Assembly: GCA_002327985.1 (NCBI GenBank)
Contig: DCVM01000058.1
Span: 21,460-85,459 of the forward strand
From: Syntrophaceae bacterium UBA2188
GTDB taxonomy: Bacteria; Desulfobacterota; BSN033; UBA1163
Reading direction: 5' to 3'
DNA length: 64,000 bases
Below the pieces are notes generated by a model that was given only the letters and a program-made list of their open reading frames with translations, did no database searches and had not been told where the DNA came from. Below are positions 605 through 56,267 of this stretch, one piece after another; positions within the stretch are counted from its first letter, which is position 1, and each line of letters begins with the position of its first letter. The translations under genes were made by a program, and so were the position numbers.

Positions 605-2074
605 TTATCCCTTAATCACTCCCATCGGGACAAGCTTGACCACTTTTCGGCTGATGCCGGCATGATGAACCACATCTACTACATCATTGACATCTTTATA
701 TGCATCGGAGATCTCTTCGACAAGGGTTCCCTGGCTTGCCCCCTTTACAACAATACCTTTATCTTCCAATTCCCTTGCAATCGCTCTCCCTTTAGCCGCT
801 TTAATGGCTTGATGCCGGCTCATCACCCGACCCGCTCCATGGCAGGTGCTTCCGAAGGTTTCTTCCATCGCTCTCTCTGTCCCCACCAATACATAGGAAC
901 ATCTACCCATATCCCCTGGGATGAGAACCGGTTGGCCGATGGACTGGTAATCGGATGGAATATCTGGATGATGTGGAGGGAAGGCCCGGGTCGCCCCTTT
1001 TCGGTGGACACAGAGCTTCTTTTTCTTTCCGTTCACCGTATGCGTTTCAATTTTAGCAATATTGTGACAGACATCATAGATCAAATCCAATCTTAAATCT
1101 TTTTGGCTTTTCTGAAAAACTTGTTCAAAGGTCTCCCTCACCCAGTGGGTGATCATCTGCCGATTGGTAAAAGCAAAATTGGCGGCACAGGCCATCGCCT
1201 CGAGATATTCTTTTCCTTCAGACGAAGAAACAGGGGCACAACAGAGTTGAGGATCTGGAAGTTCGATTTGATGTTTTCTGGTAGCATTCATCATGACACG
1301 GATGTAATCATCACAAACCTGGTGGCCTAACCCTCGTGAACCTGTATGGATAATAATGGTGACCTGATCTTTATATAGCCCCAGCGTTCGAGCAATGGCC
1401 TCATCAAAGACCTCAGCCACATACCCCGCTTCAACAAAATGATTTCCAGAACCCAAGGTCCCCAATTGTGCCCTACCCCTTTCCATTGCTTTTTCAGAGA
1501 CGCGATCTGGATTAGCTCCCTCGATGCATCCATGTTCCTCAATGTGTTCAAGGTCTTCTGCTGAACCAAAACCTTTTTCTATGGCCCACTTGGCCCCCTT
1601 TTTAAGGACCCGCCTCTCTTCCTCCCGATTCAATTTGAGATCCTTCCTATGGGACCCTACACCTGAAGGAATGTTGATGAAGAGGCCTTCCACTAACTCC
1701 TTTATTCTTCCCTGGATGTCGGTGCGGCTCAGACCTGAGCGCATCAATCGGACCCCTCAGTTGATGTCGTAACCCACCCCTCCTGGAGAAACGATTCCCT
1801 CCTCCATATCGAAGGCGGCCACCCCTCCAATAGGAAAACCATAACCCCAGTGGATATCCGGCATGGCCAAGGAATGGCCCACAATTCCTGGAAGCCATGC
1901 CACATTAGCCACTTGAACCAGACTTTGGTCCTTGCGGATATCGGTGAACAACCGCTCATCAGAATAGATGATCCCATCGGTTCTCATCTTTCCTTCTCGA
2001 GGAATTCGCCACCGATAATCATCTATCTTCTGGATTTTGATCTTTTCTTCTGGCGTCATCGGGTTGACTCCCAT
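605..2074 (-). CDS. rtcB: RNA 3'-phosphate/2',3'-cyclic phosphate ligase RtcB, predicted selenoprotein (UGA at 1757-1759 read as Sec)
   Basis: ORFs 1757..2074 and 605..1747 are in one frame, separated only by TGA. The joined sequence reads ...[37 protein letters not shown]..., matching the RtcB motif GxDINCGVR. The C-terminal part has typical RtcB blocks ([22 protein letters not shown]). An alternative start is Met6 (2059), which has a GGGAG Shine-Dalgarno (SD) sequence. Confidence 0.9.
1724..1759 (-). other. Recoded UGA (1757-1759) plus SECIS-like hairpin (1724-1742)
   Basis: mRNA: UGA GGGGUCCGAUUGAU GCGCUCAGGUCUGAGC(C)GC. Stem GCG/CGC plus CUCA/UGAG with apical GGUC. The apex CAGGUCUG is identical to the apex of the E. 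coli fdhF SECIS (GCAGGUCUGC). Confidence 0.75.
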
Positions 2075-2104: not shown

Positions 2105-2521
2105 TTAAAGATCCAGGATAATCTGTGCCCTCCAGCCTCGATTCTCTCTTTTAACCTGAATTTGATGGTAGGTCACGGCTTTCACCTCTGTTTTGATCGC
2201 ATGGACCCCCTCCTCATAAAGCTCTCCTTTCACGATCGCCTTCAGGCCACTCTCTCCAAGCGATTCCACTTTGAAACTTTTAAAGAGGAGATGCTCTACA
2301 TCATGAAGGTAGAGGAGTTCGCTCAACCAATCTACCATCAGGCGATCCAAACTCTCTCCTCCAATATGAATCTGTCTTTCGATCCGGCCTCTTACTTTTC
2401 GCAAATCCGTGATGAGGTGGAAGAACGCCTTCCCAGCATTCTCGAAAAGAGCCTTAAGATTTTCACCATGAACGATGATGCCAATATCCGCCGTATGATC
2501 CAAAATCTCATACCGCTTCAT
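2105..2521 (-). CDS. Archease (RtcB activator)
   Basis: 138 aa. N-terminal YEILDHTADIGIIVHG motif typical of archease. Sits immediately upstream of rtcB on the same strand. Confidence 0.85.
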   Translation of the reverse strand: MKRYEILDHTADIGIIVHGENLKALFENAGKAFFHLITDLRKVRGRIERQIHIGGESLDRLMVDWLSELLYLHDVEHLLFKSFKVESLGESGLKAIVKGELYEEGVHAIKTEVKAVTYHQIQVKRENRGWRAQIILDL

Positions 2522-2974: not shown

Positions 2975-3134
2975 TTTCCCTCCACTCCCACTCATGAGTC
3001 CCAAATCTCAAATCCAATTCAGACTCTTCAAAAAGTCAGCCTAAACCCGTTCCTTGTTAAAATGACCCCATCCTGAGATCCTGAAACGGGTTCAAGGGCG
3101 AAATTTATTTGGCATTTGGATTTAAACCCCTGAC

Positions 3135-3584
3135 TTAAAACTCAGTCAAAATTTCTTCGTCGTAAATCTTTTCCAGTTTCTCTTTATGGGTCATTTCTTC
3201 TTGGGCGAGGATCAAAAGCAATTTTTTCAGCTTCGGATCTATAACCCTCTTTTCTGTTGATAAATAAAGGCGATGGGATTTTTCTTCATTTTTGATCGCC
3301 ATTCGAAGGAGGTCCGCATAACTCATATCTGAGCTATACGGGGCATCCTCCATCATGCCACTAATTCCCAACCCTTTCGTCGGTTTCAATTTCATCTTTT
3401 CAATCTTCTTCAAATCAAATCCTTCGAGTTTTTTCTTGTGCCCTTCTTCCATTTTAGCCAATTCTTTGAAGGTCTTTTTCACACCAGGGTTAGAACGATC
3501 CGCTGCCATTTTGTAAAAAGCCGCTGCATCCGCCTCTTTTCGAATAGCCAACCTCAAAATTTCATCCAAGCTGTCCAGTTTCAT
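3135..3584 (-). CDS. Rubrerythrin-like ferritin-fold diiron protein (no rubredoxin domain)
   Basis: Two E...ExxH pairs (KEADAAAFY..MEEGHKKKL; KNEEKSHRLY..QEEMTHKEKL). Start at ATG 3582-3584, preceded by AAGGAGGAGGG. The track start at 3623 is unlikely. Confidence 0.75.
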   Translation of the reverse strand: MKLDSLDEILRLAIRKEADAAAFYKMAADRSNPGVKKTFKELAKMEEGHKKKLEGFDLKKIEKMKLKPTKGLGISGMMEDAPYSSDMSYADLLRMAIKNEEKSHRLYLSTEKRVIDPKLKKLLLILAQEEMTHKEKLEKIYDEEILTEF

Positions 3585-12733: not shown

Positions 12734-13726
12734 TCATTGACTCATCCACGTTGATTTGACGCCCATTTTCGTCCTCACCTCGTCCATCACTTCTGTAACA
12801 ATGGCTTTGCAGCGGTCGGCGCCGGATTTCAATACATCGATCATATATTGGGGTTTTTCATGGATCTCTTGGACCCGATTCTGGATTGGCCCAATTTCCT
12901 CCGCCATGTTCTTAAAGAGAATTTCTTTACATTCAATACAGCCGATTCCAGCCGAACGACAATGAGGATCGACGAAGGCAATCTGATCTGGTTTTGAAAA
13001 AGCCTGATGCATGGTAAAGATATTGCAGTGCTCCGGATGCCCAGGGTCACTTCGACGCTGCCGGTGCTCGCAGGTGGCTGCGGTCCTCAATTTTTCCCGG
13101 ATCATTTCAGGAGGGTCAAGGAGACCAATGGCATTATTCAGGGATTTGGACATCTTCACACCCCCATCCGTTCCAAGAATCCTTGGAGCATCTGAAAGAA
13201 GAACCTTGGGCTCAGGGAACACCTCCCCGAAACGGGCATTAAATTTCCGAGCAATTTCCCTCGAGAGTTCGACATGCTGAATCTGGTCTTCCCCCACGGG
13301 AACATACCCTGCTTTATAGACCAAAATATCTGCTGCCTGGAGCACAGGATAATCCAGAAGTCCCATATTGATATTCTGGCGATGTTGTTTTGCCTTTTCT
13401 TTAAACTGGGTCATTCTTTCTAATTCACCGATCGGGGTGACGCAATTGAAGATCCATGCCAGTTCCGTGTGCTCAGGGACATGAGATTGAACGACGATGA
13501 TACATTTATCCGGAGTCAATCCGCAGGCGACAAGAATCGTTGCGGTATCCAAAATCCTTTTCTGCATTAATTCCACCTCATATTCGATCGTAATGGCATG
13601 ATAGTCCACCACACAGTAGATGCATTCATATTGATCCACCAACTTCACCCAGTTGCGGATAGCACCCACATAATTACCGATATGAATTTCCCCTGAGGGT
13701 TGAATCCCGCTGAAGATACGATCCAT
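12734..13726 (-). CDS. trpS: Tryptophan--tRNA ligase
   Basis: Class I motifs (PSGEIHIGNYVGA, KMSKS). 330 aa of typical TrpS. Confidence 0.92.
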   Translation of the reverse strand: MDRIFSGIQPSGEIHIGNYVGAIRNWVKLVDQYECIYCVVDYHAITIEYEVELMQKRILDTATILVACGLTPDKCIIVVQSHVPEHTELAWIFNCVTPIGELERMTQFKEKAKQHRQNINMGLLDYPVLQAADILVYKAGYVPVGEDQIQHVELSREIARKFNARFGEVFPEPKVLLSDAPRILGTDGGVKMSKSLNNAIGLLDPPEMIREKLRTAATCEHRQRRSDPGHPEHCNIFTMHQAFSKPDQIAFVDPHCRSAGIGCIECKEILFKNMAEEIGPIQNRVQEIHEKPQYMIDVLKSGADRCKAIVTEVMDEVRTKMGVKSTWMSQ

Positions 13727-13979: not shown

Positions 13980-14435
13980 TCAGGTCATAAAATCGCAGAG
14001 CATCCCGGCAGTTTTCCCAACAATGTCAGTGCACTTTTCAAGACCCCCTGAAGCCAACCATTTTTGCCGTTCCTCTTCATTATCCAAATGACAATTTATC
14101 AGATCATAGCAATAACAGCTCCCAAACTCCTTTTCGAATTCCTTCCAGAATGCCTGGCATTTTCCGTAGATCTTTGTGAGGGCTTCCTTATCCTTGGGAT
14201 CGGATCTTCCCATCTTCATCCCGATAGCCATCACCGCCCCGGTGAATGCGCCGCAAAGCGACCCTTTTCGACCCACCCCTCCACCAAATCCTGTGGCCAA
14301 TTTTGGGATAAGTGGATCCTGAATCCCGAAATACTCCTTGAAACTCAAGGAGATAGATTCCGCTCAGTTAAATCCCTGCTCAAAATAACCTTTCGCCTTT
14401 TCAGAAATCAATTTCACATTCTCTTTCTCTCCCAT
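13980..14435 (-). CDS. C_GCAxxG_C_C family redox protein, predicted selenoprotein (UGA 14364-14366 read as Sec)
   Basis: The track ORF 13980..14348 starts at a TTG and lacks the family N-terminus. In-frame extension: ATG 14433-14435 (GAGGGG SD) gives MGEKENVKLISEKAKGYFEQGFN-U-AESISLSFKEYFG...GFGGGVGRKGSLCGAFTGAVMAIG. The result is about 151 aa, with U where homologues have GxNC(A)(Q/E). Confidence 0.75.
14321..14366 (-). other. Recoded UGA (14364-14366) plus SECIS-like hairpin
   Basis: 11 nt after the UGA: CUCCUUGA-GUU-UCAAGGAG (14334-14352), a perfect 8-bp stem, extended by GAAUC/GAUUC (14321-14325 / 14356-14360). Confidence 0.65.
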
Positions 14436-14568
14436 TGAGTCTTCCCCTCTTAGCCTTTCTTACCGGAAATGGATTAGGGTAGATTTACCATTTTAAAATT
14501 AAAAAAGCTATATGATCTAGCGAAGGATTCATTGAAGGCAAATAAAAAATGAGTTATACAGAGGTTTA

Positions 14569-16125
14569 ATGGAAACGTGGAGATTATTAGATACTGGCCC
14601 GCGTTCAGCAGCCGAGAATATGGCTCTTGACGAGTTGCTCCTCGAATTAAAGGCCGGGGAAAAGATTCCTCATACCCTCCGATTTCTCCAGTTCTCCTAC
14701 CCAACCGTCCTGGTCGGACATCATCAATCTGCAGAGGAGGAAGTGAGGCTCGACTACTGTCAAACACAAGGAATCGAAATAAACCGAAGACTTACAGGAG
14801 GAGGTGCCCTTTATTGGGGGAAAAAAGAATTAGGGTGGGAGATTTATATCTCAAAAAAAGATCCAAGGGTTCCCTCGAAGATTGAGGACCTTTATAGAAA
14901 GATGGGGGAGGCAGCCGCCCTTGGGCTTCGTCATCTCGGCGTTCGCGCCCATTTTCGGCCAAGAAACGATATTGAAATCCAGGGTCGTAAAATTTCCGGG
15001 ACAGGAGGGACGGAGCTCTCTGGGGCCATCCTCTTCCAAGGCACTCTCTTGGTCGATTTTGATGTCGATGAAATGCTCCGGGCCTTGAGAATTCCCTCTG
15101 AAAAACTTCAACATAAAGAGATTGAATCTTTAAAGGAAAGGGTCACCTGTTTGATGTGGGAGTTGGGCAAATCCCCTTCCCTTTCACAAATCAAAACTTC
15201 TCTCGCCAAGGGTTTTGGAGAGGCCTTTGGAGTTCAATTTCAAGATCAGTCCCTGACAGATGAAGAAGAAACAGAGTTAAAAAGTAAATTGTCTTACTTC
15301 TCTTCTCAGGATTATATTTTCAAGATTAGAAATGCCTTACCCAGGAGAAAAACCTTGAGTTCCATCTTGAAGGCGCCAGGCGGGTTAATTCGAGTCTCTA
15401 TTGCCATGGATAGCAGGACTCAGGTGATGAACCAGATTCTCATCACGGGTGACTTTTTTGCTTATCCCAAAAGGGCGATTTTTGACCTCGAAAGCCTCCT
15501 CAAGAATTCAAAGGCCATCCCCTCCAGCATTGAAGAGACCATCCGATCCTTCTTTTCCAAAACAAAACCTCAGATTCCAGGAGTCAAAGAGATTCATTTC
15601 ATTCAAGCCATTAAAGAAGCGGTGCGGAAAATGGATCTCCTCCCTTATGGATTTGACGAAGAAGAAACACACAATCTCTTTTCTATCTTAAAACATTTTA
15701 GGGAAGTGAAAAACCCCGAAATCCTTCTTCTCCCTTATTGTGCCAAAGAAATAGACTGCGAGTATAGAAATCTAAAAGGCTGTGAAGAGTGTGGTCGTTG
15801 TTCAATAGGAGAGGCCATTCAGATGGCCAGATGTTTCGGAATGGATTCGATTACCATCCAAAGTTACGAAGATCTTGAATCAACCCTTAGCCGATTAAAG
15901 CGATTAGGAGTCCACAACTTTATCGGATCCTGTTGTGAGCCTTTCTATGGGAAGCATCGGCCTGACTTTGAAAGGATCGGGTTACCTGGAATCCTGGTGG
16001 AGGTAGAAAGGACCACCTGCTATGATCTCGACCAAGAGAAAATGGCACACAAAGGTCAATTCATGAACCAAACCCAGCTTAATCTCTCTCTTTTAAGAAG
16101 GGTGCTTGAGTTCACCCATGCCTAA
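14569..16125 (+). CDS. Lipoate/octanoate-protein ligase (LplA/sLpl(AB)-like) fused to a C-terminal Cys-rich DUF116 domain
   Basis: N-terminal BPL_LplA_LipB-like region (RFLQFSYPTVLVGHHQ...RRLTGGGALYW...GRKISGTGG). C-terminal LLLPYCAKEIDCEYRNLKGCEECGRCSIGEA...GSCCEPFY, typical of DUF116. Confidence 0.75.
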   Translation: METWRLLDTGPRSAAENMALDELLLELKAGEKIPHTLRFLQFSYPTVLVGHHQSAEEEVRLDYCQTQGIEINRRLTGGGALYWGKKELGWEIYISKKDPRVPSKIEDLYRKMGEAAALGLRHLGVRAHFRPRNDIEIQGRKISGTGGTELSGAILFQGTLLVDFDVDEMLRALRIPSEKLQHKEIESLKERVTCLMWELGKSPSLSQIKTSLAKGFGEAFGVQFQDQSLTDEEETELKSKLSYFSSQDYIFKIRNALPRRKTLSSILKAPGGLIRVSIAMDSRTQVMNQILITGDFFAYPKRAIFDLESLLKNSKAIPSSIEETIRSFFSKTKPQIPGVKEIHFIQAIKEAVRKMDLLPYGFDEEETHNLFSILKHFREVKNPEILLLPYCAKEIDCEYRNLKGCEECGRCSIGEAIQMARCFGMDSITIQSYEDLESTLSRLKRLGVHNFIGSCCEPFYGKHRPDFERIGLPGILVEVERTTCYDLDQEKMAHKGQFMNQTQLNLSLLRRVLEFTHA

Positions 16126-17221
16126 GGTTTCAAAGATTGGCTTCTATGACATCGTTGTCATCGGGGCGGGCCCAGCCGGATCCAGCGCCGCTCAGGCAGC
16201 TGTCCAAAGAGGAGCGAATGTGCTGATGATTGACCGGAGACAGCGTATTGGGCTCCCGGTCCAGTGTGCAGAGTTCGTGCCCCAATGGATCTCCCGCTAT
16301 GCGCCCTTCTCCCCAAGGTGTGTGCTTCAAACCATTGAAACCATGATCACTCACCTTCCTGATGGAACATCCTATGAGATGAAAAGTCCCGGTTATATGC
16401 TTGACCGATCCCTTTTAGATAAGGAATTAGTGGCTTTAGCTGTTTTATCTGGGGCAAAGATTTCCATTGAAACAAAAGCGGTGGATCTTTCTACCGAGGG
16501 CCTTGTCGTGGAACAGGGGTCAAAAAAAGTTAAGATTCAAGCAAAGGTTTTCATCGGTGCGGATGGAGTTCACTCCTTCACCGCCCGTTGTGTCGGTCAT
16601 CCGTCCCTGAAGACCATCGTCGCCCTCCAGTATGAAGTCGTTCTCCCAAAACCTCAGAATCATGTGGACGTTTTCTTCCACAAAGACTACGAGGGGGGAT
16701 ATGCCTGGTTTTTTCCAAAAGGAAAAACCGCCAATGTGGGGATAGGTGTCATTCCTTCAAAAACATCGGTGTTACCAAATTTACTGAGCGATTTCCTAAA
16801 TTTTCTGCGAGAATCTAAAAAAGTGCCGAGGGTTGAAATCGTTTCGAAAACAGGGGGGTCTATTCCTTGTGCGCCTTATCAAAAAACTTTATTCAAGAAT
16901 ACCCTACTTGTGGGTGATGCAGCCGGACAGGCTCATCCCATCACCGGGGCAGGAATCCTAAACGCTGTCATGGCAGGCGAGATAGCGGGGAGAATTTCTG
17001 CGGAGGCCATTGAAAAAGGAGACCTTCAATATTTGGAAAATTATGAAATCGAATGCCAAGAGGCGTTTGGAAGATCCCTCTCCTATGGTTCGTTAAAGAG
17101 AGAATTTCTTGAAGAAAACTGGAGTAAAGTCGGATCTGATTTTGAAGGTTTGATTCGAAAAACTTGGGTTGGGTTCAAAGAATATTATCAGGATAGAGGA
17201 GAAGTGAATACTCAGGGCTAA
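16118..17221 (+). CDS. Geranylgeranyl-reductase-family FAD oxidoreductase (LipT-like)
   Basis: YDIVVIGAGPAGSSAA dinucleotide fold and GDAAGQAHPITGAGI. ATG 16118 overlaps the upstream stop (ATGCCTAA). Confidence 0.8.
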   Translation: MPKVSKIGFYDIVVIGAGPAGSSAAQAAVQRGANVLMIDRRQRIGLPVQCAEFVPQWISRYAPFSPRCVLQTIETMITHLPDGTSYEMKSPGYMLDRSLLDKELVALAVLSGAKISIETKAVDLSTEGLVVEQGSKKVKIQAKVFIGADGVHSFTARCVGHPSLKTIVALQYEVVLPKPQNHVDVFFHKDYEGGYAWFFPKGKTANVGIGVIPSKTSVLPNLLSDFLNFLRESKKVPRVEIVSKTGGSIPCAPYQKTLFKNTLLVGDAAGQAHPITGAGILNAVMAGEIAGRISAEAIEKGDLQYLENYEIECQEAFGRSLSYGSLKREFLEENWSKVGSDFEGLIRKTWVGFKEYYQDRGEVNTQG

Positions 17222-17272
17222 AGCCCTGAGTGACAGGTAAGGTGAATTTGTAACTCAGCCCTTCAGGGCTGA
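17211..17272. repeat. Pair of GC-rich hairpins (CTCAGGGC-TAAA-GCCCTGAG; TCAGCCC-TTCA-GGGCTGA)
   Basis: The first hairpin contains the stop codon of the LipT-like gene. The 10-mer GGCTAAAGCC recurs at 49555-49564. Confidence 0.6.
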
Positions 17273-17315
17273 TGGTAAAGACATCGAAAATCATCTCGAC
17301 GAAGAAAGGGAAAAA

Positions 17316-18365
17316 GTGAAACAAAAAGTTAGCCCCCAATATATCCAGACCAGTCTTGCTGCCTCGCTCACATTGGACTTCCAACAGGGATCCTTCCACC
17401 GGAATGCAAAGTTGAAAGGATTAAACCTGCTCCTCCACTATGAGGAAGGCTGCTTGGGGAAATGCCATTTCTGTGGTCTTTCGAAATCAAGAAAAGAAGA
17501 TCGGAAGGGAAAAACGTTTATCAGGGTGAACTGGCCCCTTTATCCCTTGGAAGAAATCATTGAAAGGGCAAGGCTTAAAGATCAACTCCATCGTGTCTGT
17601 ATCTCCATGGTGACCCATCCAAAGGCCTTTGAGGATACCCTTTATGTCATTCAAAGATTGAAAGAGAAAACCGATCTTTATATCAGTGTCCTCATCTCTC
17701 CAACATTGATTCACCACAAAGATTCTCTTATGGCGATGAAAAAAACGGGCGCAGGATGGGTTGGAATTGCTATTGATGCGGCCACTCCTGAACTATTCGA
17801 TCAATTGAGAGGCAGTGGAGTGGGAGGCCCTCACCGATGGGATCATTATTGGAAAGTCGTAGAAATGGCGACCTCTGTTTTTGAAAAATTTCATGTAGGG
17901 ATCCATCTCATTGTCGGTTTGGGCGAGACGGAGAAAGAGATGGCCGAGGCGATTCAGAAAGGGCAGGATATGGAAGCTCATACCCACCTTTTCTCCTTCT
18001 TCCCTGAAAAGGGAAGTCCCATGGAGGAATATCCCCCGCCCCCTCTCGGGCAATACCGGAGGATTCAACTTGCCCGCTGGATCATTAACGAGGGCTTAGG
18101 GTCAGCACGCCAGATGAAGTTTGATGAGAATGGAAGATTGATCGATTTTGGAATGGACATTGAACCTCTTATCCAGATGGGAGAACCCTTCATGACTTCT
18201 GGGTGCCCTGGCAGGGATGGAAAAGTCGCCTGCAACCGACCTTATGGTAACGAGCGGCCTTCGGGTCCGATCCGAAATTTCCCGTTTATCCCCGAAAAAG
18301 AAGATATTGAAGAAATTAAGAACCAATTGGAATATTGGGATATTAAAAACAGAGGGTCGGAATAA
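17316..18365 (+). CDS. Radical SAM protein, BioB/LipS-type (LipS1/LipS2 candidate)
   Basis: CLGKCHFCGL CxxxCxxC motif. GTG start. Context with the LplA-like and GGR-like genes. Confidence 0.7.
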   Translation: MKQKVSPQYIQTSLAASLTLDFQQGSFHRNAKLKGLNLLLHYEEGCLGKCHFCGLSKSRKEDRKGKTFIRVNWPLYPLEEIIERARLKDQLHRVCISMVTHPKAFEDTLYVIQRLKEKTDLYISVLISPTLIHHKDSLMAMKKTGAGWVGIAIDAATPELFDQLRGSGVGGPHRWDHYWKVVEMATSVFEKFHVGIHLIVGLGETEKEMAEAIQKGQDMEAHTHLFSFFPEKGSPMEEYPPPPLGQYRRIQLARWIINEGLGSARQMKFDENGRLIDFGMDIEPLIQMGEPFMTSGCPGRDGKVACNRPYGNERPSGPIRNFPFIPEKEDIEEIKNQLEYWDIKNRGSE

Positions 18366-18482
18366 TGGAACGGTGGAATGTTGGGTAGACGTCATTCTTA
18401 ATGGGCTCTGAATTTAACCCATTATTCCATAACCCCAGTATTCCATTGTTCCAGATTCATTTCATCATTCCATTATTCCATT
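18359..18482. repeat. ATTCCA/TGGAAT octamer-word hairpin element (family copy 1)
   Basis: GGAATAATGGAACGGTGGAATG ... CATTATTCCATAACCCCAGTATTCCATTGTTCCAG...CATCATTCCATTATTCCAT. Roughly 85% similar by eye to 42455-42510. Confidence 0.65.
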
Positions 18483-18492
18483 TAGGAGTGCC

Positions 18493-19455
18493 GTGCTAGC
18501 TCAGCTCATTCAAATCCCTTTAAAAGAACTCCAATCCGAGGCCTTCCAGATTCGAAAGGCCCATTTTGGCAACGAGCTCACCTTTTCCATTCCAAGCACT
18601 GTCTCTTACCATGACGATACTCTTTCTTTCCATAAGGATCGCTTTGCGGCGATTAGCGTCACAGGAAGCCATTGCGATCTTCGATGCGGGCATTGCCAAG
18701 GAAAGCTCCTTGAATCAATGATCCCTGCCAAGAGTCCTGAAACTTTTTTACAAGTGGCGGATCGACTTCTGTCCGGTGGCGCTCATGGAATCTTGGTGAG
18801 TGGCGGAGCCAATCAAAACGGCGAAGTTCCTCTTGAGGCATTTATTCCTTCGATCAGAGAAATTAAGGAAAAGAATCCCGAGTTCAAGGTAATAGTCCAC
18901 ACCGGTCTGATTCGAAGAGAGGTGGCTAAGGAGCTGAAAGAAGCTGGAGTCGATCAGATCCTGATCGATGTGATTGGCGATGATGCCACCATTCGAGAGG
19001 TTTACCATCTCAACAAACGGGTGAAAGATTATGAAAAGACGCTCTCGATGTTAAAAGAGATGGGTCACAACCTTGCACCACACATCATCATCGGGCATCA
19101 CTTTGGAGAGATCAGAGGGGAATGGAAGGCATTAGAAATGGTCACCCGTGCCGGTGTTGAGACCATTGTATTGGTCATTCTGAAGCCCCTTTTTTCTGTT
19201 GGAAAAAATCATTTTCGGATTCCGAAGCCTGATGAAACATCAAGGATTTCTGCCGTTGCTCGCATCCTTAATCCTAAGATTCCTATTCGTATGGGTTGCA
19301 TCCGTCCGGCCCATCCCTCAAAAGCGGAGATGGAAAAGGGATTTATTGACTCCGGGGTCAATACCATTGCCTACCCTCTCCAAGGAACGATCGAATATGC
19401 AAAAGAGCTCGGTCTTGGCACCCGCTTTATCGAGATGTGCTGTAGCTTGATTTAA
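18493..19455 (+). CDS. Radical SAM protein (second LipS1/LipS2 candidate)
   Basis: GSHCDLRCGHCQG CxxxCxxC motif. AGGAG RBS then GTG 18493. Confidence 0.7.
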   Translation: MLAQLIQIPLKELQSEAFQIRKAHFGNELTFSIPSTVSYHDDTLSFHKDRFAAISVTGSHCDLRCGHCQGKLLESMIPAKSPETFLQVADRLLSGGAHGILVSGGANQNGEVPLEAFIPSIREIKEKNPEFKVIVHTGLIRREVAKELKEAGVDQILIDVIGDDATIREVYHLNKRVKDYEKTLSMLKEMGHNLAPHIIIGHHFGEIRGEWKALEMVTRAGVETIVLVILKPLFSVGKNHFRIPKPDETSRISAVARILNPKIPIRMGCIRPAHPSKAEMEKGFIDSGVNTIAYPLQGTIEYAKELGLGTRFIEMCCSLI

Positions 19456-20882: not shown

Positions 20883-21758
20883 TTACCTCACTTTTTCTTT
20901 GAGCTCATTTAATTCCTCTCTCAAAGTTGAAATCGTCTTCTGCTGCTCCTGCATTGCTTTTTGCTGCTCCTGAACCACCTTGGTTAATACCGCCACGATG
21001 TCCATAGGACTTAGTCCCTTCCGATCCCTCGTTGCGATCAGATCAGGCACTTCTTCCGCAATAAACCCCACATGCTTCTCGGTCATGTCTTTCTTATAAG
21101 CAAACTTCACTGGATTAAGCTCCTTCAAAGTATCAAGAGCCTCCTCTGTGGCAAGAGCTTCGATGTGATCCTTATACTCCCTGCTCGAAGCATTGGTCCA
21201 GACCCCTCCGGTGGTCACATGAGCCCCACTGGCCATCTCCAAGGGATATAAAGGACTCTGGGTCCCAATCCCTACATAGCCATTGCCAATGATGGTGAGT
21301 CTTGGGTATCCCGCAGGGGTGGTGGTATTCGGAGCAGTAAAGAGGTCAAGCTGGGTGGCCGCATTGCCAATGGTGTTTCCACCTCCGAATGCAACAAAAT
21401 TATCGGTTAACGTGGAGGCTGCTCCAAACAGATAGACCGGCAATTGAGCATTGTTATAGTGGCGCAAGACCATCCGTGAACCCTTGATCGTGTTGTCCGC
21501 TATCGTGTTCGAGAGGAGAAGAAGCCCATTATCAGGCGCTACAACCTCAAGGTCCCGTGCAGGAGTAGATGTCCCAACACCTACCTTACCATCCTGTGTC
21601 ACGATAAACTTTATCTGACCCACGCCGTCCTTCACCACTAACCTGTCTTCCCCGGAAGCCAAAGTAGATACGAAAAGAACTAAAATGACGACCCAAAAGC
21701 CGACAGGCACAAAGCTCCCCACCACATCCAATCGTTTGATGCTTGCTCTTCTCTTCAT
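20883..21758 (-). CDS. Short secreted fibre protein with C-terminal peptidase-S74 intramolecular chaperone domain (paralog 1)
   Basis: MKRRASIKRL plus a hydrophobic leader, then GKVGVGTSTP...DNGLLLLSNT...GNGYVGIGTQSP...GGVWTNASSREYKDHIE...HVGFIAEEVPDLI...coiled-coil tail. Start at ATG 21756-21758, after AAGGAGGG. Confidence 0.8.
   Translation of the reverse strand: MKRRASIKRLDVVGSFVPVGFWVVILVLFVSTLASGEDRLVVKDGVGQIKFIVTQDGKVGVGTSTPARDLEVVAPDNGLLLLSNTIADNTIKGSRMVLRHYNNAQLPVYLFGAASTLTDNFVAFGGGNTIGNAATQLDLFTAPNTTTPAGYPRLTIIGNGYVGIGTQSPLYPLEMASGAHVTTGGVWTNASSREYKDHIEALATEEALDTLKELNPVKFAYKKDMTEKHVGFIAEEVPDLIATRDRKGLSPMDIVAVLTKVVQEQQKAMQEQQKTISTLREELNELKEKVR
20989..21129 (-). repeat. 141-nt perfect inverted repeat with 57315-57455
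   Basis: The reverse complement of 20989-21129 is identical base-for-base to 57315-57455 (checked by hand across the block). Confidence 0.85.
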
Positions 21759-21799
21759 CTTTGCCCTCCTTATAACTATCATTTGGGTTTTATTTGACC

Positions 21800-24700
21800 C
21801 TATTGCAAAATGATATTTTCAATAATCATCGTTCCATTGGTAATCGTAATGGAACCGTTAATAGTGGTATAAGATGAATTCGATGTAAAATCTGCACCCC
21901 ATCCACCCTGAAGCGTAATCTCTTCGTCAAAATCCAGAATAATATTTTCATTATAAGTTTCTTGAGTGATCTTAATTATGGAGGGAACAGAGGCTATGGC
22001 AATTCCATTCTGGATTTTGGGGAAACAAGGATTGTAACCACTGCATAAACCATCCTTAGAAACATAAATAGTAAACAGATCATAGTAAATCGTAATGGTC
22101 TGAGAAGTTTGATTATGGGTCGGGCAGTTGTCATAGGCAATAACCGTGATCGGATTAGCCCCTGGATTCAATGCCACCTCCTTGCTCCAGTTCGCCGTTC
22201 CGCTTCCCGTCGCCGTATCATTGTTTGCCCGAGCCCCGTTGACCGTCACCTGTTGGAGGCCGTTGTCTCCCTGCCCCGAATCACTCGCGGTTCCGACCAG
22301 GGTAATACTCGGGGTACTGACATGCTGGCCATTGTTGTGACTCGTAATCGATAATGAAGGCCCCGTCGTATCAGGGCACGCTTGAGTAGTTTGAGAGCCC
22401 AGGGACGTCCATTCCGTCTCAAGGCCATCCCCGTTCTTGCCTTTCACCCTGAAGCTATAGGAAGTGTCACAGGCCAAGCTACAGCTATTCCAAGAGATGC
22501 CGGTAGTCCAACCGGAGTTCGTTCCTGCTGTAATATTTTCGCAGTAATACTCTGTACCGCTTCTATTGCCGTTGGCCGTCCAGTTCGCCCGGATGCAAGT
22601 CTGTGTTACGTTCGAGAAAGAAGACGCCCCAGGACCGCTGGCGAGCGTGTATTTGTAAACCGTTAATGAGTAAGAGGTCTCGTTGGGTGTGGAGGCTGAA
22701 TCCCTCGCCTTTACCTGATACCCGTACTGATGGTTAGGCTGAAGCCCCGTATTCGTGTAAGAGGCTGAACTCTGCCAGCCCGCATCCGAGCCACCCGTGC
22801 CCCCTGTTGGACTGTTTACGAAATGGAAGTAATAAGATACAGGTGGGCTTCCGGCGTCCGTTGCCGTGTTCGCTACCATCGATATCGATGATGCGCTTGC
22901 CCCATAAGGAGAGGTTAACCAGGTCATGGGATTCGGCGCCGGTGGAGTTGTATCAACAACAGGGCCCAGGAACTCATAGGCTCCTATGTCCACGATGTAG
23001 GTACCATTGTTGTCGCCATCCATGACCCGTGGATTGCCTTCAACGTCCGTCGTCATGTTAGGAGGAACATCACTATTACTCCCTGCGTCAATACAGGGAG
23101 AAGTGGCCATTAGATGAAAATCTCCCGATGCCCTATTCACAAAAAGGGGATCCATGTGAATATCCGTTGCTCCTCCCGATAGAGGAGAGATATAATCAGG
23201 GCCGGGGGTGTTATAAACATTATTCTTTACAAGAGTTGGGGGAATCATGGGGGTTGTGGGGTGTCCAAAAATCCCTGAAGAATTGAAGGCAATGATGTTG
23301 TTTGCGATGACAATGCGATCCGGAATGGGCACGGGAGGAGTAGTAATAGGAGGAGGAATGGCAACGGCAATACCTCCTCCTTGTTCAATGGTTCCATATG
23401 CTGTGGCTGTATTTCCAACGATTGTGTTATTCAGAATGAAAAGACTCTCAACCGCATCGGTACGAGCAAAGGCGTAGATACCACCTCCAATCCCCCCATT
23501 GCCGGCCGTAGGATCAGAGGCTGCATTATTGATGATCAGGTTATTCAGAATCTTCCCGGTGAGATTGGGTGCCACATGGATTCCCGCTCCCATAGCTGCT
23601 GTATTTCCTTTTATAATATTTCTTTCAATATAAAAGTTGTCCCCAAGTGTTAGTGTTACAGCTCCATGAACAGCTCCCATGTAGAGAGGTTGAAAAACGT
23701 AAAAGGTATTGTTCTCGATGAGGTTATCAACGATCCTGGGTGTTGAAAGGGTAGTAAATATTGCAGGGCCAAATCTTGCCCGATTTTCAGTAATGGTGTT
23801 ATCCTCAATCGTCGGTATCGAATTTCTAAAGTAGATGGCGCCGCCTTCCCCATCGAAGGTGTTCAAAAGTTCATTTTGAGTCAAGGTGTTTCCTGCGATG
23901 ATGGCATGACTTAAATAACCGTAAATCCCGCCCCCCACAGCCGGTTTACTGGCATTTTCAAAAGGATCGCCCAGGGAGTTCCGATGAATGAGGTTGTTTA
24001 ATATATATGGAGAGGTAACGCTGACATGAATGCCTCCGCCTGCGCCTTCATATCGGGGAGGAGAAAATGGACATGCACCACCGGTATAACTGCCTCCATT
24101 CTGAATGGTGAAGCCGTCCAATGCACTAACCAGATAGCCTGATCCTATAATTTTAACGACATTAGGAATGCCGCCGCCATCAAGAATGGTGGGATTGGCA
24201 ATAATGTTCCTTTGAGCTCGACTGCTTTCATTTCCGGCAAACCCCCCATAAAGATAAACGAAGGCAGGAATACTGATTCGCTCCGCATAAGTCCCTGCAG
24301 CTACCCAGACCTCCCCGCCTGTTAAGGCAGTGGCAGCGATTCCTGCGGATACGGTTCTTTTCGCTGTTCCCCAAGTTAAGCCATCCTGGGCATCATTGCC
24401 TCCCGGCTTAACATGAATAATAGGGGTAGGCACATTCCACAGAGTGCCGTCTGATTCATCCGCACCGATATCCACGCTGACTCCAATTACCCTAAGCTGG
24501 CCGTCAATATCCGTCCATTCAGGCTCAACGTCGGACATGGATCCAGCATTACGGCATGGAGAATCCGACTGTAAATGAAATTCCCCAATTTTATAATTGG
24601 CCATCTTGGGATCTGCGGAGATATTTCCATTTAGACCTGTCTGCTCAGCGATCCCTTTATAGTCCGACTTCTCTCCCTGAAGCACATTGCCATACACACA

Positions 24701-25840
24701 GTTGTAACGAATGACAGGATAGGATGGGGTTAATGAAGATTGTTCAAGACCCCAGGTGTTAAAGGCCACCAGGTTATTACTGACAACCGGAAAGCTGTTG
24801 GCCCAGAAAATCCCAGCCCCGTGGTTGGCAAATAATGTGTTATTCATGACCTTGGGAGGTGGGTAAAGGCCCGGATCCAAAGGAGGTGGAGAGTCAATGA
24901 TGCAGATGCCACCCCCTAAATATCCTCCATTTGCCGCAATGACGTTATTGATAATGGTAGGAGCGCTTACTGCATACGAAACGGGCTGGCCAACCACATC
25001 ATTAGTTGTGGCAAAGATCCCCCCTCCACCTATACCAAACACAGTTGTCTGCTTCGCATAGTTGGCAAAGATGAGGTTGTTGGAAATGATTGGGGAGGAA
25101 TGCCCCCAGGAACCAATGCCTCCTCCGTTGTCTGCGGCCTCATTGCGGGCAATAATGTTATAGGCAATGGTCGGAGAAGAACTGGGGAGATGGACAATAT
25201 TATTCGAACCCCAGACAGAAATGCCTCCTCCATCAACAGCCTTATTGTTCACAATCATATTATGGGTAATCACGGAGTGTGCTCTTGGTTGTGTAATTTT
25301 GTATTCCGAAATACTAATGCCCGGCCCATTGTTAGATTTAATGACATTGTTGGTGATGACAGGGCCTGAAGCTATGATGGCTATTCCGGACCCGTTTCCA
25401 TTCATGATATGAAACCCATCCATGCGTGTTTCAGGTCCGGCCATCGCTCGAATGCTCACAACAACGCCGGCGTTGTTCCCGTCCAAGATTGAAATATTGA
25501 GGTTCCAATCTCGCTGGGTACGCACTGTCTCCGTTCCAGCAAACCCACCATAAAGGGCCACATTCACGGCTACGTCAGTTCCTCCTACATTGACTACCTT
25601 GTTCTGGATGTTTTCCTGGTATGTGCCTGCAGCGACCCAGATTTCATCCCCTTCGCTGGCTGCATTAATCGCGGCGGTGACAGTCCTCTTAGCCAAAGAC
25701 CAACTTGCTCCGGAATTCGTATCGTTGCCGTCAGGTTTTACTCGGAGGATCGCAGAGTGAGCGACCGCTTGAAATAAAAACAAACCCATTACAATGAGGG
25801 TTAAAGACAGAGCGATTTTAGAAATGGAATGTCGTTGCAT
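21800..25840 (-). CDS. 1346-aa secreted multidomain protein: two right-handed beta-helix (Pmp/GGxI-repeat, choice-of-anchor-Q-like) units, two FN3-like domains, an Ig-like domain and a 75-aa C-terminal module
   Basis: Signal peptide. Duplicated caps (VKPDGNDTNSGASW...GDEIWVAAGTYQENI and VKPGGNDAQDGLTW...GGEVWVAAGTYAERI). GGGI/GGAIY repeats. DP.F....GDFHL...SPCIDAG...DIGAYE motifs. Confidence 0.8.
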   Translation of the reverse strand: MQRHSISKIALSLTLIVMGLFLFQAVAHSAILRVKPDGNDTNSGASWSLAKRTVTAAINAASEGDEIWVAAGTYQENIQNKVVNVGGTDVAVNVALYGGFAGTETVRTQRDWNLNISILDGNNAGVVVSIRAMAGPETRMDGFHIMNGNGSGIAIIASGPVITNNVIKSNNGPGISISEYKITQPRAHSVITHNMIVNNKAVDGGGISVWGSNNIVHLPSSSPTIAYNIIARNEAADNGGGIGSWGHSSPIISNNLIFANYAKQTTVFGIGGGGIFATTNDVVGQPVSYAVSAPTIINNVIAANGGYLGGGICIIDSPPPLDPGLYPPPKVMNNTLFANHGAGIFWANSFPVVSNNLVAFNTWGLEQSSLTPSYPVIRYNCVYGNVLQGEKSDYKGIAEQTGLNGNISADPKMANYKIGEFHLQSDSPCRNAGSMSDVEPEWTDIDGQLRVIGVSVDIGADESDGTLWNVPTPIIHVKPGGNDAQDGLTWGTAKRTVSAGIAATALTGGEVWVAAGTYAERISIPAFVYLYGGFAGNESSRAQRNIIANPTILDGGGIPNVVKIIGSGYLVSALDGFTIQNGGSYTGGACPFSPPRYEGAGGGIHVSVTSPYILNNLIHRNSLGDPFENASKPAVGGGIYGYLSHAIIAGNTLTQNELLNTFDGEGGAIYFRNSIPTIEDNTITENRARFGPAIFTTLSTPRIVDNLIENNTFYVFQPLYMGAVHGAVTLTLGDNFYIERNIIKGNTAAMGAGIHVAPNLTGKILNNLIINNAASDPTAGNGGIGGGIYAFARTDAVESLFILNNTIVGNTATAYGTIEQGGGIAVAIPPPITTPPVPIPDRIVIANNIIAFNSSGIFGHPTTPMIPPTLVKNNVYNTPGPDYISPLSGGATDIHMDPLFVNRASGDFHLMATSPCIDAGSNSDVPPNMTTDVEGNPRVMDGDNNGTYIVDIGAYEFLGPVVDTTPPAPNPMTWLTSPYGASASSISMVANTATDAGSPPVSYYFHFVNSPTGGTGGSDAGWQSSASYTNTGLQPNHQYGYQVKARDSASTPNETSYSLTVYKYTLASGPGASSFSNVTQTCIRANWTANGNRSGTEYYCENITAGTNSGWTTGISWNSCSLACDTSYSFRVKGKNGDGLETEWTSLGSQTTQACPDTTGPSLSITSHNNGQHVSTPSITLVGTASDSGQGDNGLQQVTVNGARANNDTATGSGTANWSKEVALNPGANPITVIAYDNCPTHNQTSQTITIYYDLFTIYVSKDGLCSGYNPCFPKIQNGIAIASVPSIIKITQETYNENIILDFDEEITLQGGWGADFTSNSSYTTINGSITITNGTMIIENIILQ

Positions 25841-49844: not shown

Positions 49845-51467
49845 ATGGATAAGATTAAGATCATTTGCGTGTTAGTTGTAATTGGAGTGCTCCTTTGTGT
49901 CACACCGTCAATTGCACAGGTAGCTGTTGATTGTACCTCAGTAAGCCTTCAAACTGCAATCAGCAATAATGGTGCTGGAACAACGTTCAATGTGACCGGA
50001 ACTTGTAATGAGAACATAACGATTCATGAGTCGAAAGAAAGGATTACTATAAATGGGGGTGGTACAGCAGCTATCAGTGGCCCGAGTGCAACCAGTCCAG
50101 TTGTCACGATAAGGGGGCAAGGGGTTGTGGTAACGGGCTTTACCATTTCGGGAGGCCAGGATGGGATACAGTTGTTCAGAGGCGGGTCCGCGACAATATA
50201 TGGGAATACAATCCAAAGCACTGGCAGAAATGGGATCACTGTAGCCGGAAATAGCTATGCCGCAATTTTTAGTAATTCGATACACGATAACCCCCAACGT
50301 GGGATATCTGTATCTGAAAATTCGGCTGCGCGCATAGGGTTTTACAGCTATTCAGATACGAGCGCTTCACCTAACAGCATTTATAACAATGGAAGCTACG
50401 GGATCGAAGTTTACCGGACTTCCAGGGCACACATTGTAGGAAATACCATCAGTAGTAATGACATAACTGGGATCTTGGTTAGCGCGGGTTCGCAAGCCGG
50501 CATTTCTTACAATACAATTAATGACAATGGAGGAAGCGGGATTTACGTAGGCTACGATTCTTCCGCTGGTCTGGGATCTCTTAGTGGGTCTACCATCTTC
50601 GATTCACCTAACACCACGACTCTCAATAACGTATATAACGGTTTGCGATGCGAGATGGGAGCAACGATTTCCGGCCGAATAGGGACCCTCAATGGTAACG
50701 AAGGAAACATCGGCAACACTGGCATAGGAATTAAGACCTCCGAGCTCGCAGACGACTATGGCATCGATATTCTGACTGCCAGCACCGGTTCAAAGGCAGG
50801 TTTAATACTGTTAGGGAATGCAACTGCCAATAATGCTGATAAAGTAGCCCGAATGGTTGTTCGCCATTATAACAACGCTGAGGAGCCATTATATCTTTTT
50901 GGTGCCTACTCAGGTCCAACAGATAACTTTGTTGCTTTTGGTGGAGGCAGTGTTCTGGGGAATGCAGCAACACAGTTAGATTTCTTCACCGCTCCAACCA
51001 CTACCACTCAAGCGGGTTTGCCCAGGATTACAATAAAAGGAAATGGATATGTCGGCATCGGCAGACAGGATCCTTCCTATCCATTACACATGGCCAGTGG
51101 AGCCCATGTGACCACAGGAGGGGTGTGGACCAATGCTTCGAGCAGGGAGTATAAGGATCACATCGAAGCTCTTGCCACGGAGGAGGCCCTTGATACATTG
51201 AAGGAGCTTAATCCTGTTAAATTTGCCTATAGATTAGATCCGACTGAAAAGCATGTGGGATTTATTTCTGAGGAAGCGCCCGAACTTATCGCAACGAAAG
51301 ACAGAAAAGGGTTAAGCCCGATGGATATCGTAGCGGTTTTAACAAAGGTCATTCAGGAACAGCAGAGGGTTGCCGAAGAGCAGCAGAAGACCATCTCGGT
51401 GCTTTCTGAGAAAATCGCTGAGCTTGAAAGAGGACTAAAATTGAGAGAGGGGCTCTCGCAGCCGTGA
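49845..51467 (+). CDS. Secreted fibre protein: NosD-like parallel beta-helix head plus fibre module plus peptidase-S74 intramolecular chaperone domain (paralog 2)
   Basis: Signal peptide. PbH1 repeats (GNTIQSTGRNGITV, NSIHDNPQRGISV, GNTISSNDITGILV, NTINDNGGSGIYV). Then RMVVRHYNNAEEPLYLFGA...GNGYVGIG...GGVWTNASSREYKDHIE...HVGFISEEAPELI. Confidence 0.8.
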   Translation: MDKIKIICVLVVIGVLLCVTPSIAQVAVDCTSVSLQTAISNNGAGTTFNVTGTCNENITIHESKERITINGGGTAAISGPSATSPVVTIRGQGVVVTGFTISGGQDGIQLFRGGSATIYGNTIQSTGRNGITVAGNSYAAIFSNSIHDNPQRGISVSENSAARIGFYSYSDTSASPNSIYNNGSYGIEVYRTSRAHIVGNTISSNDITGILVSAGSQAGISYNTINDNGGSGIYVGYDSSAGLGSLSGSTIFDSPNTTTLNNVYNGLRCEMGATISGRIGTLNGNEGNIGNTGIGIKTSELADDYGIDILTASTGSKAGLILLGNATANNADKVARMVVRHYNNAEEPLYLFGAYSGPTDNFVAFGGGSVLGNAATQLDFFTAPTTTTQAGLPRITIKGNGYVGIGRQDPSYPLHMASGAHVTTGGVWTNASSREYKDHIEALATEEALDTLKELNPVKFAYRLDPTEKHVGFISEEAPELIATKDRKGLSPMDIVAVLTKVIQEQQRVAEEQQKTISVLSEKIAELERGLKLREGLSQP

Positions 51468-53391: not shown

Positions 53392-55128
53392 ATGAAACAA
53401 TTCGATGGGGCATCTTGCAAGGCTTTGATTACCATTTCCATAATATCTCTTTTGGTCATCTCACTCAAGACAAGACCCATTTTAGCACAAGAAAAAATAA
53501 TAGACCGGGGGAAAATAGTTTCTATTGCTATGACAAAAGGGTTTGTCAAAGTGATCGTTCAAATAGAAGTCCCCAAAATTAGAGAACTGACGGGACATTC
53601 TACAAAATATAGGAATATAGAGCCAGGTCAGATATTTTCAAGAGATGGCATCAAAGCTGACATGGCACTTGATGCGGCAATCAGTGAGGCCTCACATGGG
53701 TTATTGTCAAGATTAAGATCCACGAACGCCTTATTCAGGGTGAACCATACTTATATAACGCTACCCATTGTAGCCCTGGACGTCTCTGAAGAGACACTCC
53801 TAACCTTGGAGATTGACCCTTCTGTAATACGAATTGTTGAAGATCGTCCGCTCCCTCTCGTTGATACCTCTATCTATAAAAAATATATTGCTGATGTGGT
53901 TCCACCGTCACTTTACGATACGGTCAACATCATTGGCGCCAACGAGGCATGGGCAACAGGATACACAGGTTCAGGTTGGTATGTGGCGGTTCTGGATACT
54001 GGAATACGATCAAGCCATGAGTTCTTTTCAGCGAAGACCATCGTAGAAGCGTGTTTCTCAGCCCTGGGAGACTGCCCGAATGGTTTAACCGAGATGCACG
54101 GTCCTGGAGCCGCCACACATTATGAAAATACTTATAGAGGATGGGATCATGGGACGCATGTCACCGGAATAGCCGCTGGAAATAAGGAAAATGCCCTCTA
54201 CGGAGTGGCCAAAGATGCAGATATTATCGCGATTCAGGTCTTCTCACGTTTTACGGCTGAGGAGTGTGATGGTAGTCCCTGTATCATGAGCTATACTTCG
54301 GATCAGATCAAAGGTTTAGAATATTTATATACACTGCGCGGAATTTACAGTATAGCCTCAGCAAATATGAGTCTCGGTGGTGGACGCTACTCCAATCAAA
54401 CAACCTGCGATCGGGAAAACGCTTCGACTAAGTCGGCCATTGACCATCTTCGCTCTATTGGTATTGCAACCGTTATAGCATCAGGGAATGATGGTTTCTG
54501 TGATGGATTAAATGCACCCGGCTGTATTTCTTCAGCCGTTGCCATAGGTGCCACCACCAAGTCTGATCAGCAAACACGGTTTAGCAACTGGCATGAAAGC
54601 ATGTTAGATTTATTTGCCCCTGGCCAAAGTATATTTTCCTCAACCGGTGATTCTGACACGAGTTATGAATACTGGAGTGGTACTTCTATGGCCGCGCCCC
54701 ATGTCGCCGGAGCGTGGGCCATACTAAAGCAGAAAAACCCAAGTGAGACAGTACCTGGAATTTTAAATTCATTGTCTACCACTGGTGTACCGGTCACAAC
54801 CCTGTGTACTAAACAACTCGGCTCAAAACCCAGGATAAAGGTAGATGCCACTTTAGCCGCTTTAAGTTGTGATAACCCTCCCCTGAAGGTAGATACCCAA
54901 TATTTTAATACAGTCCAGGTGGCCTACGATAGCGCTCCAGAGGGGAGTATCATTCAGGTCCAGTCAGTGGGATTTACCGAGGACCTAATTTTTGATCGAA
55001 ATATTACAGCTACCTTTAAAGGGGGTTATGATTGTGACTACACAGCTAATCCTGGATACACAATAGTGAACGGATCGCTAAAAATCAGTAACGGGATGCT
55101 GATGATTGAGAATCTGGCAATAAAGTAG
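53392..55128 (+). CDS. Secreted subtilisin-like serine protease (peptidase S8) with a 75-aa C-terminal module shared with the 1346-aa protein
   Basis: Catalytic triad contexts VAVLDTGI, HGTHVTGIAAG, GTSMAAPHVAG. Hydrophobic leader. GGAGGA RBS. Confidence 0.88.
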   Translation: MKQFDGASCKALITISIISLLVISLKTRPILAQEKIIDRGKIVSIAMTKGFVKVIVQIEVPKIRELTGHSTKYRNIEPGQIFSRDGIKADMALDAAISEASHGLLSRLRSTNALFRVNHTYITLPIVALDVSEETLLTLEIDPSVIRIVEDRPLPLVDTSIYKKYIADVVPPSLYDTVNIIGANEAWATGYTGSGWYVAVLDTGIRSSHEFFSAKTIVEACFSALGDCPNGLTEMHGPGAATHYENTYRGWDHGTHVTGIAAGNKENALYGVAKDADIIAIQVFSRFTAEECDGSPCIMSYTSDQIKGLEYLYTLRGIYSIASANMSLGGGRYSNQTTCDRENASTKSAIDHLRSIGIATVIASGNDGFCDGLNAPGCISSAVAIGATTKSDQQTRFSNWHESMLDLFAPGQSIFSSTGDSDTSYEYWSGTSMAAPHVAGAWAILKQKNPSETVPGILNSLSTTGVPVTTLCTKQLGSKPRIKVDATLAALSCDNPPLKVDTQYFNTVQVAYDSAPEGSIIQVQSVGFTEDLIFDRNITATFKGGYDCDYTANPGYTIVNGSLKISNGMLMIENLAIK

Positions 55129-55206
55129 ATTAAGAGGAGATTAAATTTGTAAGGAATATGGTTAACAATGAGACATAGATCCAGAAAATATGCTGAGGAG
55201 GAAGAA

Positions 55207-56061: not shown

Positions 56062-56267
56062 AATTCTTCAAGCTTTTAGGTGGGTGTTATTTCCTTCTTA
56101 AAATAACCTCTTGTTATCTCCACTTATAAGTTGATAGCACTTTCTTTTTTCTCAATTTCCGATTGACAAAAAATGGTATTTCTTTTAGTCTTTACACAGA
56201 AAATAATTTTCAAATCCCTCATCATCCTTTTATCTAAAGGAATGATGAGGTAAAAAGGGAGGGTAAA

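Follow-up and report, generated by a model that had tools for sequence, protein, structure and literature searches.

The window, by which the whole analysed stretch of 64 kb is meant, carries on its minus strand a reading frame of 151 codons with an in-frame UGA at codon 24, a SECIS-type hairpin shortly behind this codon and four conserved cysteine (Cys) positions, the first of which coincides with the UGA. The features of the locus, given in the order of transcription, are the following:

14444..14449 (minus strand): Shine-Dalgarno-like GAGGGG, 8 nt 5' of the ATG, by direct reading of the sequence
14433..14435 (minus strand): the true start codon ATG, with an equivalent ATG in 20 of the 26 orthologues
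13980..14435 (minus strand): the full-length gene of a predicted C-GCAxxG-C-C family selenoprotein, 151 codons including selenocysteine (Sec) 24, delimited by profile matches and orthologue alignments
14364..14366 (minus strand): in-frame UGA, codon 24, predicted Sec, aligned to the first invariant Cys of the family
14334..14352 (minus strand): bacterial SECIS-type hairpin CUCCUUGA-GUU-UCAAGGAG, identified by folding, synonymous-site constraint and fit to the bSECIS model
14346..14348 (minus strand): TTG, the codon of Leu30 within the hairpin's 5' arm, chosen as a false start in ORF and gene calling
14253..14255 (minus strand): codon of Cys61, the second invariant Cys (the Cys of GCAxxG, here S-L-C-G-A-F-T-G), present in 81/81 family sequences
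14109..14111 (minus strand): codon of Cys109, the third invariant Cys, present in 81/81 family sequences
14031..14033 (minus strand): codon of Cys135, the fourth conserved Cys, present in 80/81
13980..13982 (minus strand): TGA, the gene's own stop, by direct reading of the sequence

The frame opens with MGEKENVKLISEKAKGYFEQGFN, corresponding to the ATG and 22 further sense codons, reaches the TGA at 14366..14364 and continues behind it with AESISLSFKEYFG..., and a total of 127 sense codons separate the internal UGA from the terminal TGA at 13982..13980. The original prediction had described an ATG preceded at 8 nt by a GAGGGG Shine-Dalgarno sequence, a UGA in the same frame and a product of about 151 aa, and the DNA agrees with it in each of these elements. 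It had also stated that the N-terminus was missed by the ORF track. The tracked entry is indeed a 122-aa ORF starting at TTG 14348, 29 residues shorter than the full-length frame, and the same error is systematic in public entries. A scan for sigma-70 promoters and terminators around the gene returned none on the gene's strand.

The hairpin behind the internal UGA

The hairpin is separated from the UGA by an 11-nt spacer and is formed by a perfect 8-bp stem and a GUU loop, at a distance of 19 nt from UGA to loop and with a folding energy of -9.4 kcal/mol. In the orthologues the energies range from -6.0 to -9.4 kcal/mol, with a mean of -8.1, and the conserved core comprises 6-7 bp together with the GUU loop. 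The bSECIS model (PMC13188914) is defined by (i) a loop of 3-9 nt; (ii) an upper stem of 4-16 bp; (iii) an energy of -7.5 kcal/mol or below; (iv) G in the first two loop positions, with G or U as the usual next nucleotide; (v) a UGA-to-loop distance of 16-37 nt. The window hairpin lies within these published limits for a bacterial SECIS in every respect (loop of 3 nt, stem of 8 bp, loop beginning with GU, 19 nt, -9.4 kcal/mol). Among the 2597 TGA trinucleotides of the window, 13 (0.5%) are accompanied by a perfect 8-bp hairpin obeying the bSECIS spacing and loop rules. An Rfam search of the whole window at gathering thresholds gave no match to a SECIS family.

The codons covered by the hairpin, +5 to +11 (S L S F K E/D Y), are nearly frozen in their codon choice despite a degeneracy of up to six-fold. 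Among the sequences keeping the respective residue, TCC is used in 23/24, TTG in 26/26, AGT in 26/26, TTC in 25/25, AAG in 25/26, GAG in 14/14 and TAT in 23/23, while the conserved residues flanking the hairpin show 1-2 bits of codon entropy. The loss of synonymous variation coincides exactly with the codons of the hairpin and shows that the structure is held at the RNA level; this conclusion follows from codon usage and not from covariation. In the covariation test the shuffles reach the observed values, one compensatory pair was found and the stem is almost invariant, so that the test is uninformative. In one orthologue (L021) the sole AAG-to-AAA change co-occurs with the sole TCC-to-TCT change, by which the C-G pair becomes U-A and pairing is preserved. 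The hairpin overlaps the conserved peptide SLSFKE, and its conservation is not strictly tied to the UGA, since a close relative with TGT at this codon (L165, described below) has it too.

An outer helix GAAUC/GAUUC (14360..14356 with 14325..14321), proposed at the outset as an extension of the stem, is present in the window. Across the 26 orthologues it is paired in 62% of cells, with no compensating changes, and was rejected as a conserved element. The part of the proposal that stands is the perfect 8-bp stem-loop located 11 nt past the UGA.

Conserved cysteines, orthologues and database entries

With Cys put at codon 24, the protein matches PF09719 with an E-value of 4.6e-29 (101.3 bits, cutoff 27) and TIGR01909 with 77.8 bits (cutoff 47.4), the latter being named by NCBI "C-GCAxxG-C-C family (seleno)protein". 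A homologue scan of one genome per GTDB species yielded 80 loci, namely 25 close orthologues, 60-80% identical and derived from metagenome-assembled genomes of Syntrophaceae/Thermodesulfobacteriota, and 55 distant relatives, 33-50% identical. In the resulting alignment of 81 sequences the only conserved Cys columns are 24, 61, 109 and 135, which supply the four elements (C, GCAxxG, C, C) after which the family is named. Column 24, with Cys or Sec in 81/81, sits within an invariant G-x-N-C motif. The alignment thus places the UGA exactly at the first family Cys, as had been claimed.

An alternation of TGA and TGC at this codon among relatives had been suggested as a check, and it was found. The UGA column is TGA in 25/25 close orthologues from different species-level genomes (26/26 with the window included) and TGT or TGC in 54 of the 55 distant relatives. 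The other distant relative, L063 (CAYVQZ010000023.1, codon at 3043; 40% identity), has TGA at the same first-Cys column, and 15 nt 3' of it a hairpin, GGCUCUU-GGC-AAGAGCU, unrelated to that of the window. As judged from these alignments, Sec appears to have arisen at the first-Cys column at least twice, in L063 independently. Close Cys forms exist as well (P0011, P0019, P0086 and P0117). The close relative L165 (JBRBYD010000092.1, gene 3001..3447) is a Cys form with 71% identity, which carries TGT at the column and has retained the SECIS-like hairpin; it is read as a recent Sec-to-Cys switch, which would explain the kept hairpin.

Two odd variants were met at the Sec column. In L166 (ENA k141_805224) the codon is TTA (Leu) and the hairpin is intact, while P0121 is a degenerate 56-aa fragment with Arg at this place; both are probably errors or decayed, inactivated copies. 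Single metagenome variants of this kind are the observations that could be invoked for the TGA being a sequencing or assembly error, or for the gene being a pseudogene. However, 25 independent species-level genomes have an identical TGA, as do several independently made assemblies of the window's organism, and the frame downstream of it is intact and under purifying selection, which leaves such an explanation with almost no probability.

The 23 codons located 5' of the UGA show conserved amino acids and variable synonymous codons, with an entropy of about 0.5-1.8 bits in the 26 ungapped orthologous sequences. Because the amino acids are kept while the synonymous sites vary, these codons constitute a translated region. 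If the UGA were nevertheless a true stop, the product would have 122 aa starting from TTG 14348, or fewer from a later codon, and the 23 upstream codons would belong to a leader or a micropeptide. This shortened product would lack the first invariant Cys together with the G-x-N-C motif of 81/81 members, and the codons assigned to the leader are conserved as protein, in frame and contiguous with the rest of the gene. The TTG is enclosed in a stable hairpin, and no Shine-Dalgarno sequence precedes it, in contrast to the GAGGGG at -8 of ATG 14435. Moreover, distant relatives encode the same N-terminus unbroken, with TGY at the column. Termination at codon 24 is consequently regarded as extremely improbable, even with every standard-code public gene caller in agreement with it (122-127 aa, more than 100 clusters) and no Sec machinery nearby (window and 10 kb on each side).

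Among the best 120 database homologues, about 100 are 124-127-aa proteins starting at "(I)SLSFKEY" just past the UGA, and a dozen "full-length" entries have Trp at the Sec column. The entries with Trp result from translation of the TGA with another genetic code, as checked on the DNA of L167, and in one of them (P0002) the translation with W also runs through the true stop, giving '...KIQGWLIF'. In independent assemblies of the window's organism the gene has been called as a 122-aa or an 83-aa product, and a homologue search with the N-terminal 50 residues only returned one match, a degenerate fragment. The W displayed at the codon by some entries might be taken as a sign of a genetic code with UGA as a sense codon (code 4 or 25). 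Against this, TGA terminates 13 of the 49 well-supported ORFs of the window, this gene included, hence UGA is not reassigned genome-wide, and the overrun of the real stop in P0002 identifies its W translation as a gene-caller artefact. A reassigned code is accordingly given a negligible probability.

With the full-length frame, an annotation error that recurs systematically is put right. Over 100 database clusters of this orthologue group are entered as 124-127-aa proteins without the key residue, or have Trp in its place, and structural or functional work based on those entries would begin from the wrong protein.

Neighbouring genes and a second in-frame UGA

In 22 of the 25 orthologous loci the selenoprotein gene is located 5' of trpS on the same strand, and the other flank varies (LplA, MutY or a histidine kinase). 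In the window trpS, encoding tryptophanyl-tRNA synthetase, occupies 12734..13726 (minus strand), 253 bp from the selenoprotein gene, and a search of the spacer between the two genes for terminators and riboswitches gave no hit.

A lipoate cluster extends divergently from the selenoprotein gene at 14569..19455 (plus strand). It consists successively of a lipoate-protein ligase (LplA/LplB) fused to a Cys-rich DUF116 domain (14569..16125), a geranylgeranyl-reductase-family flavoprotein (16106..17221), LipS2 (17316..18365) and LipS1 (18493..19455), all on the plus strand. The genes of the LplA-DUF116 protein and the flavoprotein flank the selenoprotein gene in 7 of the 25 orthologous loci. The Cys-form gene of L165 adjoins a divergent group of YeeE/YedE (Sulf_transp), TusA and Se_S_carrier (PF11823), i.e. 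a sulfur/selenium-trafficking neighbourhood. Elsewhere in the window, at 20883..25840 (minus strand) and at 49845..51467 and 55168..57581 (plus strand), four proteins with a C-terminal Peptidase_S74 domain (endosialidase chaperone) are encoded. A 1346-aa beta-helix/DUF1565 protein adjoins one of them, and a subtilase is located at 53392..55128. All of these proteins taken as a set look like self-cleaving fibre or adhesin-like surface proteins.

The original prediction had counted two cases of UGA at a Cys codon with a hairpin in this window, and the other case, a TGA at 1759..1757 within the gene of the RNA ligase RtcB, is likewise present. The gene occupies 605..2074 (minus strand), and its in-frame TGA (1757..1759) falls on the Cys that binds the metal (Cys98 of the Pyrococcus horikoshii enzyme). 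With Cys at the UGA, the Pfam RtcB match covers residues 1-426 of 426 with an E-value of 1e-180. A hairpin, UGCGCUCA-GGUC-UGAGC(C)GCA, follows about 13 nt past the UGA. In 80 related metagenome loci the column is TGA in 27 and TGY in 53, and each of the 27 TGA loci shows a hairpin at the same distance (-7.7 to -16.1 kcal/mol), in which the loop is G-rich and the stem sequence differs between loci. In public gene calls the RtcB gene is broken up into one product of 100-105 aa and another of 379 aa. The selenoprotein catalogues of 2022 and 2026 do not list RtcB, and a literature search led only to the engineered U98 variant of the P. horikoshii enzyme; the UGA-containing RtcB looks more novel than the C-GCAxxG-C-C gene. 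The gene of archease, the RtcB activator, is located directly 5' of RtcB at about 2105..2521 (minus strand; coordinates mapped from L171), the two forming an archease-RtcB operon. A gene for methylated-DNA-protein-cysteine methyltransferase is also found near RtcB, about 1.3 kb before the window start (12414..12923 of L171), and this enzyme is a listed known selenoprotein family.

Decoding and role of residue 24 in relation to known systems

Taken together, the gene at 14435..13980 (minus strand) very probably encodes a 151-residue C-GCAxxG-C-C selenoprotein with UGA24 read as Sec, an assignment made from sequence comparison. Translation would initiate at ATG 14435, and the hairpin at 14352..14334 would act as a bacterial SECIS by which termination at UGA 14366..14364 is avoided. 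By recruiting SelB-GTP carrying Sec-tRNA(Sec), the hairpin would direct the insertion of selenocysteine at position 24, while the UGA at 13982..13980, having no such hairpin, would terminate translation normally. The predicted Sec24 would replace the first of the four invariant Cys (24, 61, 109 and 135), within the motif G-x-N-C/U.

SelB and tRNA(Sec) are presumably present in the organism. No selA, selB, selD or tRNA-Sec gene was detected in the 64 kb of the window or in the adjoining 10 kb on either side. ARAGORN detected no tRNA-Sec in the whole window, about 50 ORFs of the window, annotated with Pfam and NCBIfam, included no SelA, SelB or SelD, and the 10-kb extensions, obtained through public contigs of the same organism, carry only glycosyltransferases at one end and genes of unrelated kinds at the other. 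Thermodesulfobacteriota have been described as among the most selenoprotein-rich bacteria. The selenoprotein-rich phylum, the UGA of RtcB and the published family members lend indirect support to Sec decoding.

The UGA might also be read through by a standard tRNA, either a near-cognate Trp or Cys tRNA or a suppressor, with the hairpin as a generic stimulator and selenium not involved. The absence of Sec machinery from the window and 10 kb on either side would fit such a process, as would the existence of a Cys form with the same hairpin (L165). The column, however, is an invariant Cys that Trp would destroy, the hairpin fits the SelB-type model in its loop (G then U) as well as in its spacing, RtcB in the same window has the same signature of UGA plus hairpin at a Cys codon, and both the family and the phylum are documented Sec users. 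Selenium-free read-through is thus considered very unlikely.

What the Sec/Cys pair establishes is a critical function of the residue; it does not show thiol redox chemistry. The original prediction took the Sec replacement as support for a redox role, of which the critical nature of the residue can be retained, whereas redox activity is not implied by the replacement, a metal ligand being equally possible on this ground, as in RtcB. In the literature the family is called "putative redox-active", in connection with expression data only. The favoured reading is that Sec24 would be a reactive redox nucleophile cycling with a conserved Cys through a selenenylsulfide; the less favoured alternative is that it would bind a metal or iron-sulfur centre together with three other ligands. 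Sec fixed at the first Cys in one clade, and again in another, would mark this residue as the reactive centre of the family. For this widespread family of anaerobes, the Sec column provides a starting point for biochemistry, while nothing is changed in the knowledge of selenocysteine decoding itself.

The AlphaFold model of the protein is all-helical, with a mean pLDDT of 82 and a pTM of 0.81, the GGGxGxxG loop before Cys61 being of low confidence. In structure comparisons with PDB and BFVD this model had no match at an E-value below 1, and sequence searches of the PDB with two family profiles, one narrow and one broad, gave sub-threshold matches only.

Split-Soret cytochrome c, which reportedly carries an unusual iron centre, shares with the window protein the motif GG-I-x-x-x-G-x-x-C-G-A-x-x-G-A...G-R around Cys61. 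This motif-level similarity involves residues 77-106 of 1H21, GGISDWGTICGALYGA...GR, which belong to the N-terminal part of the cytochrome, with a PDB E-value of 1.1, below significance. The NCBIfam model of split-Soret (NF047622) is matched by residues 15-81 with an E-value of 0.0075 and 15.7 bits, the cutoff being 400. A Foldseek comparison gave no match of the window model to 1H21, and in contrast to split-Soret cytochrome c the window protein has no haem-binding part. The similarity may be followed as a lead and is not put forward as a result. That the four Cys/Sec residues make up a site for a metal or iron-sulfur cluster, akin to the unusual iron centre of split-Soret cytochrome c, with Sec as a natural cluster ligand, is a tentative and rather unlikely proposal. 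If true, the recurrence of Sec at the first-Cys column in L063 would point to a ligand position that tunes the reactivity of the site.

Sec is a metal ligand in formate dehydrogenase and in [NiFeSe] hydrogenase. The window gene resembles such metal-ligand selenoproteins, as well as the RtcB of the window, in having a UGA at an invariant Cys codon and a hairpin 10-20 nt downstream; in contrast to formate dehydrogenase and [NiFeSe] hydrogenase, a metal or cofactor in the C-GCAxxG-C-C family is hypothetical.

The minimal SECIS of E. coli fdhF reportedly consists of the upper stem-loop located 11 nt past the UGA. The E. coli element has a bulged U and specific loop nucleotides, which are bound by E. 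coli SelB. Like it, the window hairpin lies 11 nt past the UGA and within the coding sequence, and has a small loop with G then U. The differences relate to the bulged U, which is missing, the 3-nt GUU loop, the stem, which is unrelated, and the lower stem, which is unconserved. The classification as a minimal fdhF-type SECIS, made in the original prediction, therefore holds for the 11-nt spacing and does not extend to the bulge and the loop. The window hairpin would work like the fdhF SECIS and belongs to a different sequence class.

The closest known systems are the selenoproteins of the same family. In Zhang & Gladyshev 2007 (PMC1976440), selenoprotein members are given as "putative redox protein" of the Olavius algarvensis delta-1 symbiont, together with Sec/Cys alignments and predicted SECIS elements for this family. 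The 2022 selenoprotein catalogue also lists the C-GCAxxG-C-C family, and the catalogue of Zhang et al. 2026 (PMC13188914) lists it as "form 1" and "form 2". For these catalogued forms (reference sequences MGD8741185.1 and WP_012158890.1) the literature consulted does not name the Cys that Sec replaces. The known members and the window protein belong to the same Pfam/NCBIfam family, have an in-frame UGA opposite Cys homologues and a stem-loop 3' of the UGA, and likewise come from sulfate-reducer and syntroph lineages, formerly Deltaproteobacteria. Compared to the catalogued selenoprotein forms, the orthologue group of the window is located 5' of trpS, is abundant in metagenomes and is represented in databases by entries that are shortened or contain Trp. 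As the family has had published selenoprotein members since 2007, the novelty is low; the gene is a previously unannotated member of a known selenoprotein family, and its description is a re-annotation rather than a discovery.
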